Part shown: positions 26,720 through 43,679 of the stretch, piece after piece | Layout: each line of letters opens with the position of its first letter | Numbering within the stretch: position 1 is the stretch's first letter | UHGV virus genome: UHGV-0175244 | DNA from: a virus | Length of the DNA stretch: 44,935 bases | Reading direction: 5' to 3' (one strand) | Made by a program: the position numbers and the translations under genes | Notes under the pieces: generated by a model | What the model was told of the DNA's origin: nothing | Database searches by the model: none | Seen by the model: only the letters and a program-made list of their open reading frames with translations

Positions 26720-26794
26720 TGGAGCATCTGGCGGGGATCGAACCCGCATATTCTGGTTGGAAGCCAGACGTAATTACCAAACTACGACAGATGC
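26720..26794 (-). tRNA. Phage-encoded tRNA-Gly (anticodon UCC)
   Basis: A hand-folded cloverleaf gives acceptor GCATCTG/CAGATGC, D stem GTAG/TTAC, anticodon stem TCTGG/CCAGA with loop CTTCCAA, T arm GCGGG-TTCGATC-CCCGC, discriminator U and an encoded CCA. Confidence 0.8.
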
Positions 26795-33561: not shown

Positions 33562-34643
33562 GCTTTGACTCCCTTGCGCTCACGGTGCTCGTTGATGGCC
33601 TGCTCGTAGACAGATCCCCAGTTCTTCGGATTCAGTATCCAGTCGAGAGTCAGCCATGGCTGATCGCCTCTGGTGCCGAACAGGGAAGACTTGCTAATCA
33701 GCTCGAAGGCCATTCCCATGTGCTTCAGTTCTCGCCAGTTGCCCTGGGTGGTTTTGCCGTTCCACACAGCTTCCAGGTCTCGATAGGCCGGACGGCGGCG
33801 GTTCCACTCATGCAGTGAAACGGCCTTTGAAGGGAATTTTTCATTCCAGAGCTTGATGATCTCTTCGTGCGGACAGGCTGCCGGATTGCTTCCATGACCA
33901 TCTGCCCATATCAGGGCGTCTGACAGGTATCCATCAAAGCGGGTCATACGGCACAGGTTCTCTGGCTTGAAGCTGTGACCCCAGTTCACATGGGCCCAGC
34001 GGATAACGAGTTTCAGCTCTTCAGCGGTGTAGCACTGGTCTTTGCTCTTCACCGTGGAGAGAGCTTTCTCGAAAGGTGCCAGCGCAGCACAACGACTACC
34101 AGTTAGCTCGTTGAAGTAATCCATCACCTCCTGAGCGAGTGAGTTTTCCCCCTTGGGGGATTTAGGGGGATCTTGTCTTTCTGTATTTTGATTATTGTCT
34201 TTTGTGGTTAGCACCTTCTGCTTAGTTCTGTTAGCAACTTCCGCTAAGGTTTTCTTAGCAGGTTTAGCTAATGTTTTGCAGAATCCGTTAACCTTCGTTT
34301 CCCACTCGGAAACATTGGTATTCATGCCCACTTTGCGGCCTTCCTGAATGAATACCTTCTTGCCGATCAGCAGGTTTTTGGCAGTAGAGCAATGCGTGTG
34401 GTGCTTACCAACCATCTGCTCAAGTTGCTCGTTGCTGACCCAATCCGTTTTTTTATTGAAGCCGTATGTTTTGCGCCAGACGGCCAGCACAATGCACATC
34501 TCAGTTTCGCTCAAACCTGAAGCCATAACGGCATCAAGAAGCTCATTCGCGACGCGAGTGAACCCATCTTCCAGTTGCGCCACACGATGCTCCACGACCT
34601 CCAGCGGCGGCCTGTAGTCTGCTAAATGCTTAACGACGCCCAT
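33558..34643 (-). CDS. Replication initiation protein (lambda O-like N-terminal domain)
   Basis: GFTRVANELLDAVMASGLSETEMCIVLAVWRKTYGFNK is a typical phage O N-terminal motif. It lies upstream of the helicase. Confidence 0.8.
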   Translation of the reverse strand: MGVVKHLADYRPPLEVVEHRVAQLEDGFTRVANELLDAVMASGLSETEMCIVLAVWRKTYGFNKKTDWVSNEQLEQMVGKHHTHCSTAKNLLIGKKVFIQEGRKVGMNTNVSEWETKVNGFCKTLAKPAKKTLAEVANRTKQKVLTTKDNNQNTERQDPPKSPKGENSLAQEVMDYFNELTGSRCAALAPFEKALSTVKSKDQCYTAEELKLVIRWAHVNWGHSFKPENLCRMTRFDGYLSDALIWADGHGSNPAACPHEEIIKLWNEKFPSKAVSLHEWNRRRPAYRDLEAVWNGKTTQGNWRELKHMGMAFELISKSSLFGTRGDQPWLTLDWILNPKNWGSVYEQAINEHRERKGVKA

Positions 34644-34797
34644 GCTTCACCCCTGCCTGAATCAGTGCCAGTCTTGCCATGCCAACAAAGCGCTCAGCGA
34701 ACGCCCGGTTTTTTGAGGCAGCGACAACCAGGCCATCTGGTGAATCTGGGTGGCGACGTTCCTCTTTTTCCTGGTACTTTTTGCGAGTTTTTGACAT
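34630..34797 (-). CDS. Small basic hypothetical protein (55 aa)
   Basis: GGAG SD before the ATG at 34797. Confidence 0.45.
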   Translation of the reverse strand: MSKTRKKYQEKEERRHPDSPDGLVVAASKNRAFAERFVGMARLALIQAGVKHGRR

Positions 34798-34885
34798 ACT
34801 TACTCCCGTTACTTGGCGTAACACAGTGTGATAAGGGCCTTTGAAGTGACCGCTTCAAGGGCTTTCGCTTTTTTGGTAGTACCCA

Positions 34886-35452
34886 TCACATAACTCCCGG
34901 CGCCATAGCGGCCAGACTTGTCACCACCGCAGCGATTGATTCAGTTGGCAGGAGGCGCAGCAGTGCTTCAGCAGCTTCTCTCACCTCTTTCTCAAGGCGT
35001 TGTATCGGCTGACCAAGTAACTTCGCCTGATGCGCTTCAGTGCACTCTTTCATGGCCTCGGCTATCAGTTCGGCCTCAGTCTTTGCGACAAGACCGAACT
35101 CTCTCGCCACTTTCTCGTTATCCCGAGCCATCACATCAACAATGACGGGGATAAGTAGCACCAGGCCTTTATCGTTCTTAGGTCCCGGGTCGTTAATCAT
35201 CCGGAAGAAGTTCTGCTTGGTGTTGTGCTCAGAACCGGCCAGCAGCAATCCACGACCGCCGCGCGCCAGCCACTCCTTTGCTACCAGTTGCGAAATGTGA
35301 ACCTGAGCCTGTCCGGGCGTTGCCTTCTGCCAGGCGCGAACAGCTTCGCGGATCCTGGTCAGCTTACTGTTATTGCGCGGAACGCTTTGATTTATCGAAA
35401 TCATCGGATTCGCAGTGAATCCGTTATTCTCGTGATACGTAAGTGAATGCAT
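34886..35452 (-). CDS. YdaT-like regulator (CII-position protein)
   Basis: AKEWLARGGRGLLLAGSEHNTKQNFFRMI...LIPVIVDVM resembles Rac YdaT as I recall it. It lies directly after the cro-like gene. Confidence 0.55.
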   Translation of the reverse strand: MHSLTYHENNGFTANPMISINQSVPRNNSKLTRIREAVRAWQKATPGQAQVHISQLVAKEWLARGGRGLLLAGSEHNTKQNFFRMINDPGPKNDKGLVLLIPVIVDVMARDNEKVAREFGLVAKTEAELIAEAMKECTEAHQAKLLGQPIQRLEKEVREAAEALLRLLPTESIAAVVTSLAAMAPGVM

Positions 35453-35469: not shown

Positions 35470-35703
35470 TTAGGCCGCAGTATCACGCGGCGATGCGAAT
35501 ACCAGGCTTTCTTTGAGGACCGGAGCCTGGCGGTGAAAATTCTTCGTGCCTTTTTCGATAGCAGATGCCATTTCTGGAGATGCCCGGCGATTTCCGTAGG
35601 CAATCTGGTCCAGGTAACCTGGCGTCGTGTTAGCCAACTTTGCGAGCTGTGCCCATTCGTCGGTAGTGGCGGCCTTGCGCCAGCGGTGTAGTTCAGTGCT
35701 CAT
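35470..35703 (-). CDS. Cro/YdaS-like HTH regulator
   Basis: 77 aa with an HTH (WAQLAKLANTTPGYLDQIAYGNRRASPEMASAIEKGT). It is divergent from cI across the operator cluster. Confidence 0.7.
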   Translation of the reverse strand: MSTELHRWRKAATTDEWAQLAKLANTTPGYLDQIAYGNRRASPEMASAIEKGTKNFHRQAPVLKESLVFASPRDTAA

Positions 35704-35735
35704 TGTTGTCTCCGGGTGAGTCGTTTAATTTGGAG

Positions 35736-35801
35736 TTTAGCGTTATGCTAAATACTACGCAAGCATCATTTAGCAATTTGCACATTTATCATTCTGCTAA
35801 A
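35736..35801. promoter_or_regulatory. OR-like operator cluster with candidate pR and pRM
   Basis: Perfect 17-bp palindrome TTTAGC-N5-GCTAAA at 35736-35752. Degenerate copies at 35769-35785 and 35785-35801. Minus-strand TTGCTA-16-TATTTA (35776-35749) is a candidate pR. Confidence 0.6.
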
Positions 35802-35819
35802 AGCAGTAACAATGCAGGG

Positions 35820-36497
35820 ATGGAAAATAAAGAAATCAGAAAAGCCAACCTGGAAGCGCTGTACGAGAAACGTCAGCACGAATCTGGAATGACCAAGGCG
35901 CAGTTCGCCGAGCTCATCGAGACAAGTCCGGCTGCGCTTAGCCAGCTACTGGGACCAAACCCTCATCGCAATATCGGCGATAAGATGGCTCGCAAAATTG
36001 AAACTGCGCTTGATCTGCCTTTTGGCTGGATGGATGTTTTACACGCCAGTGAAGAACCTTCGAACGTTGCATTTCGAGGACTTAACGAGATAAAAGGAAG
36101 TTATCCTGTGATCAGCTGGGTAAGCGCGGGGCAATGGATGGAAGCTGTAGAACCTTATCACCGAAGAGCGATAGATCGCTGGTATGACACGACCGTTGAT
36201 TGTTCAGAAGATTCATTCTGGCTTGACGTTAAAGGGGATTCTATGACCTCCCCGGCCGGACTGAGCATACCAGAGGGAGCAGCGATACTTGTTGATCCTG
36301 AAGTCGAGCCGCGCAACGGAAAGCTGGTTGTCGCGAAGCTAGAAGGCGATAACGAAGCGACCTTTAAGAAGCTTGTAATCGATGCCGGCAGACGCTTCCT
36401 TAAGCCACTTAACCCCGCGTATCCAATGCTAGAAGTTAATGGAAACTGCAAAATTATTGGCGTTGTGGTCGATGCAAAAATACTAAACATCCCATAA
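35820..36497 (+). CDS. cI: CI-like prophage repressor (HTH + S24/LexA-type autopeptidase)
   Basis: 225 aa from ATG 35820, with an N-terminal HTH and C-terminal GDSM...K (WLDVKGDSMTSP...ATFKKL). Confidence 0.85.
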   Translation: MENKEIRKANLEALYEKRQHESGMTKAQFAELIETSPAALSQLLGPNPHRNIGDKMARKIETALDLPFGWMDVLHASEEPSNVAFRGLNEIKGSYPVISWVSAGQWMEAVEPYHRRAIDRWYDTTVDCSEDSFWLDVKGDSMTSPAGLSIPEGAAILVDPEVEPRNGKLVVAKLEGDNEATFKKLVIDAGRRFLKPLNPAYPMLEVNGNCKIIGVVVDAKILNIP

Positions 36498-36515
36498 CCA
36501 CACGCAAAACCCCTC

Positions 36516-36541
36516 AAGCCCGCCATTGCGCGGGCTTTTTT
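36516..36541 (+). terminator. Rho-independent terminator of cI
   Basis: GCCCGC-cattgc-GCGGGC followed by TTTTTT. Confidence 0.75.
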
Positions 36542-36580
36542 GCGTCCCGAATTCCTGCGCTGTAAATTTTTAATCGCTTA

Positions 36581-36657
36581 TTAATCAAAAAGCTAAATAA
36601 AATCCGCCAATAATTTAGCATTTTGCTATTGCGCATAATTTAGCATCACGCTAAATT
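36581..36657 (+). promoter_or_regulatory. OL-like operator cluster and candidate pL (TTGCGC -17- TAAATT)
   Basis: Perfect TTTAGCatcacGCTAAA at 36639-36655 lies between -35 (36629-34) and -10 (36652-57). Degenerate copies at 36614-36630 and 36581-36597. Confidence 0.55.
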
Positions 36658-36721
36658 TACCCCATCGAAACGAAACATCGACAGCTGAGCGAAGTTAGCC
36701 AGCGGCGGATAGCGAGTCGCC

Positions 36722-36733
36722 TGCTCATTAAGA
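36722..36733 (+). promoter_or_regulatory. boxA-like element (TGCTCATTAAGA; compare rrn boxA TGCTCTTTAACA)
   Basis: It lies ~60 nt downstream of the predicted pL start. 10 of 12 positions match rrn boxA as I recall it. Confidence 0.35.
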
Positions 36734-36815
36734 ATTCAGTCAAGCAGCAAATCACCCGGAGCGCTCCTGGCAAATTGAAATGGCGCCCAATGGGATTGAG
36801 GCAGGTGTGTAACGC

Positions 36816-36995
36816 GTGGCGGGTATAGCACACGAAGAGGACTCCGCACCGGAATGGTTTGCTGCTCAGTTCCCGAACATCGGGGAATCTTCAGTGGGAA
36901 TGTTTTGGGATTGGATGAATGCGCAGGCTGATGCGCGGGGTGGAGCGGCCCGGGTGGCTACTGAATCAAGACAGGCTGTAAGACAAGCTGTGTAA
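36816..36995 (+). CDS. Possible 59-codon acidic Trp-rich ORF (GTG start), first ORF of the pL operon
   Basis: (M)AGIAHEEDSAPEWFAAQFPNIGESSVGMFWDWMNAQADARGG... Codon choice looks enteric. The SD is weak and the ORF falls below the track threshold. Confidence 0.3.
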   Translation: MAGIAHEEDSAPEWFAAQFPNIGESSVGMFWDWMNAQADARGGAARVATESRQAVRQAV

Positions 36996-37161
36996 ATAAC
37001 TGGTAAGCCGTAGTAGCCAATAAAGCAGGTGAAAATCATAACGTCTATCCCGCTTCGGCGGTGGCAGCTAACACCTGTGATAGTCAATGCCGGAGATCAG
37101 CGCCGGCCATCCAATCACCAAAGCATTTCGATTCATCAACCCACGCAACAAAGGAGCTTCT

Positions 37162-37194
37162 ATGCGACGGCAAAGCTATATCGCTCACAAATAA
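37162..37194 (+). CDS. 10-codon mini-ORF (MRRQSYIAHK) with strong SD, 23 nt upstream of a terminator
   Basis: AAGGAG-cttct-ATG. The stop lies 11 nt before the anti-box at 37205-37216. Confidence 0.3.
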   Translation: MRRQSYIAHK

Positions 37195-37216
37195 TCGGTA
37201 CCACAAATGCTTTCGG

Positions 37217-37241
37217 AAACCCCGGCGATGTCGGGGTTTTT
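37217..37241 (+). terminator. Rho-independent terminator (tL1-like)
   Basis: AAACCCCG-gcgatgt-CGGGGTTT followed by TT. Confidence 0.7.
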
Positions 37242-37247
37242 GGTGAG

Positions 37248-37350
37248 TGCTTTGGGTTGGCAGACGGTTATCAGCTAGTTGGTGAGGTAATGGCTCACCA
37301 AGGCGACGACGACCTTCCCCGCTTCATTGTGGGGAGCCAGCGCCAAAGCA
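37248..37350 (+). ncRNA. Structured RNA element: 14-bp closing helix plus 16S-rRNA-helix-11-like hairpin plus second hairpin
   Basis: 37248-37261 pairs with 37336-37350 (one bulge, one G-U). Hairpins at 37279-37301 and 37316-37335. 37273-37309 matches 16S rRNA from memory. Confidence 0.4.
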
Positions 37351-37389
37351 TTTCTCCCGCATCAGCGGGTAACGACAGAGGGTAAGGCG

Positions 37390-37557
37390 ATGAGAAACAC
37401 AACAGATAAATATGCTGCCGAGTGCAGTGAAGATTACAGGCAGTATCGCAAAAAATGTCGAGCATCAGTGCGTGGTGATGGGTTTCATGACCTTTGGGTA
37501 AAGCTGGCATGGATGTGCCGACGCAACGCACGAGAATGGATTAACAGAGCCGCCTAA
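37390..37557 (+). CDS. Small basic hypothetical protein (55 aa)
   Basis: MRNTTDKYAAECSEDYRQYRKKCRASVRGDGFHDLWVKLAWMCRRNAREWINRAA. GAGGGTAAGG SD. A terminator follows. Confidence 0.55.
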   Translation: MRNTTDKYAAECSEDYRQYRKKCRASVRGDGFHDLWVKLAWMCRRNAREWINRAA

Positions 37558-38064: not shown

Positions 38065-38225
38065 CAGTCACCCACAACGGCAGGCAGTACACCTTTAAGC
38101 GCTGCGCCATGAACGATAACGAATGGCGGCTAACGTCGATCACCAATCTGCGAGAGCAGGTCACACTGAACAGCGGGCAGATGCACATTGCTGGCTTACT
38201 GGCCCAGGTGGAGGGTAAAAAATGA
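38061..38225 (+). CDS. Hypothetical protein (54 aa)
   Basis: Not in the track. ATGA coupling at both ends (MTVTHNGRQYTFKRCAMNDNEWRL...). Confidence 0.5.
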   Translation: MTVTHNGRQYTFKRCAMNDNEWRLTSITNLREQVTLNSGQMHIAGLLAQVEGKK

Positions 38226-38425
38226 TGCACCACTACGGGTACGTTGAAGTTAACCGCGGCGCAGTTCAGCCAGGCATGCTTGTTAAGCACAAAGATGGCA
38301 TGTGGACGGCATCAGCCAATAAGCGCGGAAAGCTCTACCTCCATCGAGGTTGTGAGCGCACCTTCACCAGAGAGCTTCTGGTTGAGGTGTATCTTGATGG
38401 CCTCGGCGGCGGATTGAGTCATTAA
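38222..38425 (+). CDS. Hypothetical protein (67 aa)
   Basis: Translationally coupled ORF. Confidence 0.55.
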   Translation: MMHHYGYVEVNRGAVQPGMLVKHKDGMWTASANKRGKLYLHRGCERTFTRELLVEVYLDGLGGGLSH

Positions 38426-38429
38426 CCCA

Positions 38430-38744
38430 TTAATTGTTTGGGCCGCGAGGTGCAAGCTTAAACTCCAGATGATACAGCTTGCCGTCAGGTGCCTGGAAGT
38501 CGACCTCGAATGAACCCGGCGGATTGAATGGGTCAGGTGCGTTTCTTGCGATACACGTAGAACGCCATGCAATATGACCATTCTTGCCTAAGCCAAGCGA
38601 TCGTGACTTCCACCAGTCATACCATGATTGATCATGCGGCTGGTCACTTCCCTTTTCTCTCACAAACCAATGATTCCGCTTCGAGCGCTTGCCCATTTCA
38701 TCATTTGGGTACATCGGGGTTGGCAGTTTCTTATCAATCAGCAT
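38430..38744 (-). CDS. Orphan hypothetical protein (104 aa) encoded antisense to the pL operon
   Basis: AGGTGA SD 4 nt before the ATG. It fills an otherwise empty 450-bp gap and its codon usage looks coding. No family recognised. Confidence 0.55.
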   Translation of the reverse strand: MLIDKKLPTPMYPNDEMGKRSKRNHWFVREKGSDQPHDQSWYDWWKSRSLGLGKNGHIAWRSTCIARNAPDPFNPPGSFEVDFQAPDGKLYHLEFKLAPRGPNN

Positions 38745-38877
38745 CTGGTCACCTGGTTATTGCCGTTTCGCTAGAAACATTCTGCGCCAGCATTCTGATA
38801 AATCAAGTTTCACATTTATAGACCGGGCTGGCTTTAACCGGCCTGGTGACCCACGTCAAAATTTCAGGAGTTCAGCC

Positions 38878-39162
38878 ATGAACGCATACCTCACTTACGA
38901 CCGCATCGAAGATCGGCGCTGGGTTGAGCAGCAGCTCGACGACGAGAAAGAGAAGTGGATCGACGACCGGGCGCAGGAAATTATCGACACCCTGCCGAAA
39001 GAGCCGTCAGGCCTGTTCCGCTTCTCTGTACCGATGGACAAAAGCCCATATGAAGGCCTCCGCAGCGATGCAGCTGGCGAGGCATATAACGATCTCATTT
39101 CGGCAGTAGCTTACGCCCAGGCGGAATACGACTGGGATCACCGCACCGGCTGCCCGTTTTAA
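38878..39162 (+). CDS. gam: Gam-like protein (N-terminus resembles lambda GamS)
   Basis: MNAYLTYDRIEDRRW compares with lambda MNAYYIQDRLEAQSW. The upstream SD region also reads FRSSA as in lambda. It lies immediately upstream of bet-exo. The C-terminal two thirds are divergent. Confidence 0.5.
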   Translation: MNAYLTYDRIEDRRWVEQQLDDEKEKWIDDRAQEIIDTLPKEPSGLFRFSVPMDKSPYEGLRSDAAGEAYNDLISAVAYAQAEYDWDHRTGCPF

Positions 39163-42211: not shown

Positions 42212-42547
42212 ATGGCATCTGACAAACCGATAACAGCACAGCAGGCCGCCGATTTGCTCATCGTGTCTGCGCGGGTGATCTACCGCCTGATTGAGTCTGG
42301 GGAGCTCGCCGGCCGCAAGGTCGGCAATAAGTACAGAACGACCGAGGCTGCGTGTATTGCATATTTGAAAACCCCGCGCGATCCTGTCATCGCGAACGCG
42401 GGTGAACATAAAGGAGAAGTTTTATGTCAATCACCCTCAGGGGCGGCGTGTGGCACTGTCATTTCTTTACGCCGTCAGGAAAAAGAGTTAGGCGATCTCT
42501 TGGCACGGGGGACAAAAAGCAGGCTCAGGAGCTCCACGACAAGCTGA
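42212..42547 (+). CDS. xis: Excisionase-like HTH protein
   Basis: GGAGG SD before the ATG at 42212. [32 protein letters not shown] is an excisionase/MerR-type HTH. The tail overlaps the int start. Confidence 0.6.
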
Positions 42548-43587
42548 AGGCGGAAGCGTGGCGGGTTGACCAGATCGGCGACCTGCCCGTCAGAACCTTT
42601 GAAGAGTGCTGCATCCGGTGGCTGCGGGAAAAGGACCATAAGCGATCTCTGGATGATGACAAAACCAAAATTGTTTTTTGGCTGCAGCATTTTTCCGGCC
42701 GTGATGTCTCGAAGATAACGGCGGAGGAAGTTCACGAAGCCGTTAACGGGATGATCAACCGTAAGCACCTGCAGGTGTGGGAGAGTAAGCGTGATGCCGC
42801 GATGAGGAAGGGAAAGCCGGTTCCGGAGTACAAACCACGGCAGGTTTCGCAGGCTACGAAGGCGCAACACCTTTCCTTCATTCGTTCCCTTCTCAGGGCC
42901 GCGGCGAATGACTGGGGCTGGATAAAAACAGCTCCTGTTATCAAAACCCGCAAGCCGATCAGTAAGCGGATACGATGGCTGACCAGAGAAGAAGCTGAGC
43001 GGTTGATCGAGTGCATGCCGGAGAGCATTAAGCCAGTGGTGATATTTGCACTGGCAACCGGCCTGCGCCGCTCAAACATCATCGGGCTTGAGTGGCAGCA
43101 GGTCGATATGCAGAGAAAGGTTGCATGGGTAAATCCGGAGAACGCAAAAGCGGGCAAGGCGATTGGCGTGGCTCTGAATGATACCGCATGCAGGGTATTA
43201 AGGGATCAGATAGGGAAGCACTCCCGGTGGGTGTTCGTTCACACCACGGCTAAGCATCGCCCTGATGGAACACTAACGCCCGCGGTTAGAAAAATGCGGG
43301 TGGATGACAATAACGCCTGGCGCGCCGGGTTGAAAAAAGCGGGGATCGAGGATTTCCGTTTTCACGACCTCCGGCACACCTGGGCGAGTTGGCTGATCCA
43401 GTCCGGCGTCCCGCTTTCTGTTTTACAGGAAATGGGAGGATGGGAGAGCATCGAGATGGTACGTCGTTATGCTCACCTGGCGCCGAACCACCTGACCGAA
43501 CACGCACGGAAAATTGACGCCATTTTTGGCGCTAGCGACACAAATACGACACAAGGAGGAAATCAGGCTGGTTTAAAACTGGCGTAA
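42424..43587 (+). CDS. int: Tyrosine integrase
   Basis: 387 aa with C-terminal [39 protein letters not shown]. It lies adjacent to the tRNA/att. Confidence 0.92.
43534..43555 (-). promoter_or_regulatory. Candidate integrase arm-type sites inside the 3' end of int
   Basis: The minus strand reads TTGTGTCGTatTTGTGTCGCT (11-bp period), the same 9-mer as at 1909-1929 and inverted relative to it. Confidence 0.4.
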
Positions 43588-43601: not shown

Positions 43602-43647
43602 ATGGCACGCCCTACAGGATTCGAACCTGTGACCTACGGCTTAGAAG
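43602..43647. repeat. attR: att core within the intact tRNA-Arg gene
   Basis: Identical to 1804-1849. Confidence 0.92.
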
Positions 43648-43679
43648 GCCGTTGCTCTATCCAGCTGAGCTAAGGGCGC
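43603..43679 (-). tRNA. argU: tRNA-Arg (anticodon UCU), argU-like
   Basis: 77 nt GCGCCCTTAGCTCAGCTGGATAGAGCAACGGCCTTCTAAGCCGTAGGTCACAGGTTCGAATCCTGTAGGGCGTGCCA. It folds as a cloverleaf and is close to E. coli argU as recalled. Confidence 0.92.

Follow-up and report, generated by a model that had tools for sequence, protein, structure and literature searches.

Lysogens keep functions for exclusion and defence in opposite-strand genes within temperate-phage early operons, as exemplified by sieB and rex. The membrane protein SieB, which comprises 184 aa in phage lambda and 192 aa in P22, is encoded in both phages by a single opposite-strand gene inside the pL operon. Lambda sieB (34482..35036, plus strand) directly abuts N (35037..35438, minus strand) with a 0-nt gap, and P22 sieB, for which an own promoter and an RNA start have been annotated, converges with gene 24 across 20 nt. 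A second point of reference is the moron concept, which reportedly goes back to Juhala, Hendrix and colleagues and their HK97/HK022 comparisons. It describes an extra unit of differing base composition and variable presence that lies between genes adjacent in relatives, is expressed from its own promoter and, in the classical case, brings its own terminator.

Here, we analysed a gene of comparable layout in the UHGV virus genome UHGV-0175244, of which the whole stretch of 44,935 nucleotides is referred to as the window. The gene (38430..38744, minus strand) resembles sieB in being a single opposite-strand gene inside the pL operon, and both combine an own promoter, putative in the window gene, with a short leader. 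The tail-to-tail gaps of sieB (0 nt in lambda, 20 nt in P22) compare with 4 nt for the window gene and 12 nt for those of its homologues that lie next to N. Having N as a neighbour is a feature that sieB shares with these homologues (loci L010, L011, L039 and L040), whereas the window copy neighbours kil. With 104 aa, the window protein is about half the length of SieB, and it is predicted to be soluble (GRAVY −1.09), in contrast to the membrane-associated SieB. Similarity to SieB was not detected (different PHROG, no shared Pfam family, NCBIfam empty), and a promoter shared with sieB was considered and rejected, as neither the lambda nor the P22 sieB promoter is related in sequence to that of the cassette. 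Judged from these sequence comparisons, the likeness to sieB is one of architecture only, and the protein does not belong to the SieB family. The cassette fits the moron concept, with which it shares the position between genes adjacent in relatives, the differing base composition, the variable presence and the (here putative) own promoter. The exception is the terminator, which the window cassette lacks, as it ends at the stop codon of its gene. Overall, the architecture is ordinary for lambdoid prophages, and the protein is without known relative outside its own family.

A conserved gene of the PHROG 16212 family

The first-pass annotation, made from the sequence of the window alone, had described a 104-codon ORF on the minus strand, preceded by the Shine-Dalgarno sequence AGGTGA, positioned 4 nt from the convergent stop codon of the upstream gene and filling the roughly 450-bp gap before the next gene. 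All of these features were recovered. The ORF occupies 38430..38744 (−) and encodes 104 aa, and the AGGTGA sequence is located at 38749..38754 (−), 4 nt 5' of the ATG, with (A)AGGTGA being kept in most upstream alignments. The stop codon is separated by 4 nt from that of the plus-strand gene 38222..38425, and the gap to the next plus-strand gene measures 452 nt (38426–38877). The gene is also consistent with being the sole minus-strand gene from pL to int, the gene content of 36.5–37.7 kb aside.

As the whole window contains 113 ORFs of at least 90 aa, length alone is little evidence for a gene, and it was the conservation that proved decisive. In total, 58 related loci were gathered from genomes, metagenomes and viral contigs, giving 59 copies together with the window. 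All 59 copies, which derive from Enterobacterales prophages, are intact with a length of 100–104 aa and span Enterobacter, Klebsiella, Citrobacter, E. coli, Cronobacter, Raoultella and Serratia. Among them are 37 distinct coding sequences, which encode 33 distinct proteins and for which a median dN/dS of 0.063 was obtained (Nei-Gojobori, 211 informative pairs). Synonymous sites are near saturation and often saturated, while the proteins are still 80–90% identical. In an alignment of 24 sequences, 30 residues are invariant, including four tryptophans and the motif H57-I-x-W-R-S-T-C64. These results show that ORF 38430..38744 is a genuine protein-coding gene under strong purifying selection. The reading frame, whose conservation in related prophages had been proposed as a check, is retained in every copy (59/59), and the possibility that the region is non-coding spacer, which had likewise been raised, is contradicted by the dN/dS value and the absence of broken copies.

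The designation as an orphan gene had to be abandoned. The protein matches PHROG 16212 ('unknown function') with an E-value of 7.6e-58, its residues 1–103 covering profile positions 1–100 of 101. All 24 aligned relatives match the same PHROG (best E 9.7e-69), and about 24 clusters of relatives at the 90% identity level were found, with 48–97% identity to the window protein. The exact window protein is present on 52 contigs. The annotation is 'hypothetical protein' everywhere, i.e. in Klebsiella, Enterobacter, Citrobacter, Lelliottia, E. coli, Shigella, Cronobacter and Serratia. An allele of the gene is carried by 28 of 5,426 complete E. coli genomes. One example, WP_000904075.1, is situated in a DLP12-site prophage, with a Kil-type gene on one side and lambda-type gam-bet-exo on the other. 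It belongs to the same family as the window protein (~70% identity) and, like it, is sited between a Kil-type gene and gam, but it lies 5' of the lambda-type module, whereas the window copy precedes gamL-RecT-YqaJ instead.

A tblastn search with the protein against 50,697 phage records gave no match, so that all known members of the family come from prophages and metagenomic contigs. When 1.84 billion representatives were searched exhaustively with a HMMER profile, the family itself was returned and otherwise only fragments and spurious repeats, among them the candidates P0019 and P0022, which were rejected as spurious repeat proteins rather than relatives. A repeat of the profile search, for which the alignment had been made more diverse, contributed only members from Serratia and Ewingella, and neither fusions nor extra domains were found. 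Literature searches, in general and by WP_000904075.1, found no paper on the gene, and the members of PHROG 16212 carry no recorded function.

The protein has a mass of 12.1 kDa, a pI of 9.4 and a GRAVY value of −1.09, and contains five tryptophans and eleven prolines. A membrane segment was not found, the maximum Kyte-Doolittle value over 19-residue windows being −0.07. Two AlphaFold2 runs of only moderate confidence (pLDDT 73.7 and 67.5) gave the same alpha-beta-alpha-beta-beta(-beta) topology, with helices at residues 15–23 and 41–47 and strands at 26–30, ~65–67, 78–84 and 90–97. The Foldseek comparison suggested in the first-pass annotation was run with this moderate-confidence model against PDB and BFVD and returned nothing at E ≤ 0.001, and a sequence profile search of the PDB returned nothing below E 0.89. 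The protein matched no entry of Pfam or NCBIfam, 0 families of the PADLOC-DB 2.0 defence models were matched at E ≤ 1, and PHROGs searched with the 24 relatives at E ≤ 1 yielded the unknown-function PHROG 16212 and no other family. The original remark that the protein matches nothing recognisable therefore stands as to function and fold (Pfam, NCBIfam, PADLOC, PDB and BFVD all empty), and homology cannot assign a function to the 104-aa protein.

Cassette boundaries, promoter and flanking genes

The convergent neighbour (38222..38425, plus strand) is a KilR-type kil gene of 67 aa, as indicated by matches to phrog_294 (E 2e-30) and PRK11354 (E 8e-15). The latter is the 'FtsZ inhibitor' entry of NCBIfam, and PF27398 KilR is recorded on homologous genes. 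In passing, we observed that a 68-aa Kil-type protein is named 'cell division protein FtsZ' by RefSeq (L064 1744–1950, H45; E. coli genomes). This name is a mis-annotation, the protein being an FtsZ inhibitor.

On the promoter side, the cassette is followed by a phi80-type gamL gene of 94 aa (38878..39162, plus strand; NF033500, E 2e-44; phrog_1050), which opens the recombination module and has RecT and then the YqaJ exonuclease downstream. Its start, previously placed at 38879, was corrected to 38878. The earlier label 'gam' was only partly appropriate: the ribosome binding site and the first codons are lambda-like, but the gene is of the phi80 GamL type and its product shares 31% identity with lambda Gam. 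GamL and lambda Gam are distinct sequence types of RecBCD inhibitor (PMC12315714). Similarity to lambda does resume, as had been noted, about 20 nt before the start codon (~22 nt, ATTTCAGGAGTTCAGCCATGAACGC), and the translated FRSSAMNAY was likewise found, the in-frame upstream translation reading NFRSSAMNAY in the window and YFRSSAMNAY in lambda Gam. This patch of ribosome binding site and first codons (38852..38900, plus strand), which is common to lambda, HK639 and E. coli gam/gamL, constitutes the recombination joint towards the recombination module. In many E. coli prophages, it recurs ahead of gam and gamL, with varying genes preceding it.

The local order of a 52-aa gene, kil and gamL is common to the window, HK639, CobraSix and the E. 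coli FDAARGOS_1250 prophage. Comparison among these syntenic prophages, as proposed at the outset, revealed that the gene is missing in the latter three, where kil is followed by gamL at a spacing of only 70–78 nt compared to 452 nt in the window. Thus, we concluded that the window carries an insertion of ~390 bp. Alignment with the empty sites places the right boundary at ~38818–38821 and the left end lies 4 nt after the kil stop, which delimits an inserted cassette (38426..38817) of promoter, leader and ORF. Between differing contexts, homology stops at the stop codon on the 3' side and at about −66 from the ATG on the 5' side. The G+C content of the cassette amounts to 48.5% versus 53.4% for kil and 56.8% for gamL, and the skews change sign within it, as expected of a reversed gene.

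Upstream of the gene, a putative −35 hexamer TTGATT (38801..38806, minus strand) and a putative −10 hexamer CAGAAT (38779..38784, minus strand) are separated by 16 nt in the window and by 16–18 nt across distinct upstream sequences. Together they make up a sigma-70-like element of conserved position: of 36 distinct upstream sequences, 34 have TTGAT[T/G/A] at −61 to −65, and CAGAAT, CAAAAT or TATAAG is aligned in nearly all of the 36. Both hexamers are kept even where everything further upstream is unrelated. A generic promoter scan missed the element because only 8 of 12 positions match the consensus; in the E. coli allele, the −10 hexamer matches at only 3 of 6. From these positions, transcription is predicted to start near 38772 with a leader of ~28 nt. 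A near-palindrome overlaps the −35 hexamer (38797–38806, minus strand, in the window) and reads TGATTTATCA in the window, TGATTAATCA in many loci and TTGATTAATCAA in the E. coli allele. Its interpretation as an operator was rejected, since its conservation fails across contexts, and it may be a coincidence.

A conserved cassette-borne terminator, i.e. a hairpin with a T-run, was not found within 600 nt downstream. The idea that the cassette carries one was rejected on this ground and in view of the homology ending at the stop codon, with the convergent gene 4 nt away. Hence, the proposal of a moron-type insertion holds in that a gene with a conserved promoter-like element and lower G+C content has been added between kil and gamL, but not with respect to an own terminator. 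A G+C-rich hairpin, CCGGGCTGG-CTTTAA-CCGGCCTGG (38823..38846, plus strand), folds at −20.6 kcal/mol and pairs better on the pL-sense strand via G-U pairs, with weak covariation support (4 consensus pairs). As the homologous stretch is also found in the empty sites, the hairpin was rejected as part of the cassette and assigned to the backbone kil-gamL spacer; it may correspond to the tL2 cluster of lambda. At the equivalent place 5' of the gene's promoter, loci L010 and L040 carry a canonical pL-sense intrinsic terminator, AAGGTCGC-TTAG-GCGGCCTT-TTTTATT.

Several further observations were made elsewhere in the window. Within ORF 37029..37385 of the early-left operon, a stretch of 47 nt (37267–37313, plus strand; GTTATCAGCTAGTTGGTGAGGTAATGGCTCACCAAGGCGACGACGAC) matches positions 237–283 of the bacterial 16S rRNA model, structure included, with 33–38.7 bits (E 5e-9 to 3e-8), which is below the gathering score of 50. 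Similar DNA occurs in 'hypothetical protein' genes of one Yersinia phage and one Klebsiella phage. A nearby element of 43–53 nt (37341–37393, plus strand), which covers the start of a small ORF (MRNTTDKY...), is 95–100% identical in HK639, CobraSix, Enterobacter phages and E. coli prophages and 98% identical to a stretch within the annotated phi80 N gene, the surroundings being unrelated. The immunity region (35538–36891) with its LexA-family repressor shares 97% identity with its counterpart in the E. coli FDAARGOS_1250 prophage. A match of 52 nt (36656–36707) to HK639 falls between the annotated putative pL and the putL-like antiterminator RNA of that phage, on which account the window phage may use RNA-mediated antitermination like HK639. 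Two tRNA genes were detected, of which one (26723–26794, minus strand) is located inside the prophage and the other (43606–43679, minus strand) adjoins the integrase gene (42424..43587), where it probably indicates the attachment site.

Contexts of the gene across relatives

In every locus examined, the orientation of the gene is opposite to that of the early-left operon. In 46 of the 59 loci, its tail-to-tail neighbour is a KilR-type kil at a distance of exactly 4 nt, three divergent Kil subtypes included, while the remaining 13 have no KilR-type kil within ~6 kb. In loci L010, L011, L039 and L040, the gene is instead tail-to-tail with an N36-type N gene (Pfam E ~1e-17) across a gap of 12 nt. 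The neighbour of the most divergent Serratia copies (~50% identity) is an 87-aa Arg-rich protein with weak similarity to N36-type N. The promoter-side neighbours vary as well and include gamL-RecT-YqaJ, lambda gam-bet-exo, a 131-aa gene with an ExoX-like exonuclease, Erf-type modules and others. As the gene recurs beside different recombination modules, its site is regarded as a recombination joint. The description of the gene as lying at a mosaic boundary is thereby borne out as far as the joint and the varied recombination modules are concerned; it needs qualification in that, for the window, an insertion into the kil-gamL spacer is the more apt description, the two genes being neighbours in relatives without it.

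The history of the gene also appears to be uncoupled from that of its surroundings. In locus L001, the gene is 75% identical to the window copy compared to 98.5% for kil, so that the identities do not co-vary, and the same cassette is found with different immunity repressors. Intact copies of the gene were seen in a truncated Cronobacter prophage (L009) and in a scrambled remnant of Raoultella terrigena NBRC 14941 with host genes around it (L013, 2900–9600). In the latter, which lacks both kil and the recombination genes, the 104-aa gene is accompanied by an Rz fragment, a TolA_C-like lipoprotein, a Tad2-like (anti-Thoeris) gene, a chromosomal class A beta-lactamase and an AAA_21/AAA_15 ATPase. 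Across these loci, the cassette is shown to be variably present and exchanged independently of its neighbours.

Other cargo was seen in the same operon (L064, E. coli FDAARGOS_1277, 2027–2998 and 569–1123; L063, 1582–1860). E. coli relatives carry a 323-aa same-strand hypothetical gene between kil and gamL. In addition, opposite-strand genes are found between the repressor and kil, with the annotations 'GhoS antitoxin' and 'ECs_2282 family zinc-binding protein'. The early-left operon serves accessory genes as a general landing site.

Proposed role and alternative explanations

The reading that we favour, and to which we give slightly less than an even chance, is that the cassette is a lysogen-expressed moron whose protein would serve the lysogen, likely in exclusion of or defence against other phages through binding of a macromolecule. 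The cassette would act as an autonomous unit of a weak sigma-70 promoter, a strong Shine-Dalgarno sequence and a 104-codon gene, placed in reverse between kil and gamL in the pL operon of this lambdoid prophage. In the lysogen, where pL is repressed, its promoter would drive modest expression of a small, basic, soluble cytoplasmic protein, which may bind a host or incoming-phage macromolecule to the benefit of the lysogen. Upon induction, antiterminated pL transcription would collide head-on with the cassette and shut it off. Since the cassette has no terminator, its transcript is expected to read on in the antisense direction, into kil here and into N in other phages.

That the function serves the lysogen is suggested by the position, which resembles that of sieB, by the reversed orientation and by the persistence of the gene in decayed prophages, the last argument being drawn from two remnant loci (L009 and L013). 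Against a protective moron speaks that no known defence protein, functional family or fold was matched. The consensus match of the putative promoter (8 of 12 positions, and 3 of 6 in the −10 hexamer of the E. coli allele) and the moderate pLDDT of the structure models (73.7 and 67.5) likewise count on this side. Arms-race genes often bear a signature other than the strong purifying selection seen here (omega 0.06), which counts against a defence-type reading. Among the known prophage exclusion factors that consist of a single gene, most are membrane proteins, and the solubility of the protein thus counts against exclusion. More tentatively, and with considerable doubt, we propose that the protein may be a single-gene cytoplasmic protection factor of the lysogen with a new fold, acting in exclusion, defence or Kil tolerance. 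It would be interchangeable with sieB at the N-proximal position and coupled to antisense damping of kil or N.

An alternative, which we consider unlikely, is that the gene safeguards the lysogen against leaky early-left expression, either through a protein that neutralises Kil or protects FtsZ, or through an antisense RNA against kil or N mRNA that stabilises the lysogen. The recurrent tail-to-tail arrangement with KilR-type kil at exactly 4 nt, kept in 46 of 59 loci and with three divergent subtypes, would fit such a role, as would N being the other recurring convergent partner and the read-through into the convergent gene that is expected of a terminator-less cassette. However, 13 of 59 loci are without a KilR-type gene within ~6 kb, the gene is intact in the kil-less remnant L013, and most kil-carrying phages and prophages do without it. 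Gene and kil identities moreover fail to co-vary (L001, 75% vs 98.5%), and the version that relies on RNA only would leave the omega of 0.06 unexplained. Two narrower forms of this idea were rejected, namely a Kil antidote forming a toxin-antitoxin pair with kil, because co-occurrence is not obligate, co-variation is absent and most kil-carrying relatives lack the gene, and a purely antisense function, in view of the omega of 0.06.

A further, quite improbable explanation moves the function from the lysogen to the infection phase. The gene would then act in anti-defence or host takeover, with its own promoter firing on genome entry independently of antitermination. A promoter outside repressor control would indeed fire on entry, the occurrence of the same cassette with different immunity repressors is compatible with this, and its early-left neighbours have host-takeover or anti-nuclease functions (kil and gamL; ral in relatives). 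Yet a head-on orientation to the strong antiterminated pL transcript would be a poor design for a lytic gene, the lytic accessory genes of the early-left operon are co-oriented with the operon, and the retention in prophage remnants argues for a benefit in the resident state.

That there is no functional gene at all, the ORF being a chance frame in non-coding spacer or a decaying remnant, is hardly conceivable: the absence of any known domain or fold match and the sole annotation as 'hypothetical protein' would be in line with it, but by the conservation pattern it is, on sequence grounds, already refuted, given the intact copies (59/59) in the taxa named above, from Enterobacter to Serratia, the 30 invariant residues shared by 33 distinct proteins, and a median omega of 0.063 with saturated synonymous sites.

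Returning to the favoured reading of a lysogen-expressed moron, the gene is compact, well delimited and widespread, with representatives in Enterobacter, Klebsiella, Citrobacter, E. coli, Shigella, Cronobacter, Raoultella and Serratia. If the protein is a minor fitness factor, the finding amounts to one more moron. The head-on, terminator-less layout lends itself as a clean natural example in which to study transcriptional interference and how kil or N is controlled by antisense transcription, and the small, easily cloned gene, for which HK639 and CobraSix provide natural empty-site controls, could reveal a new small effector.
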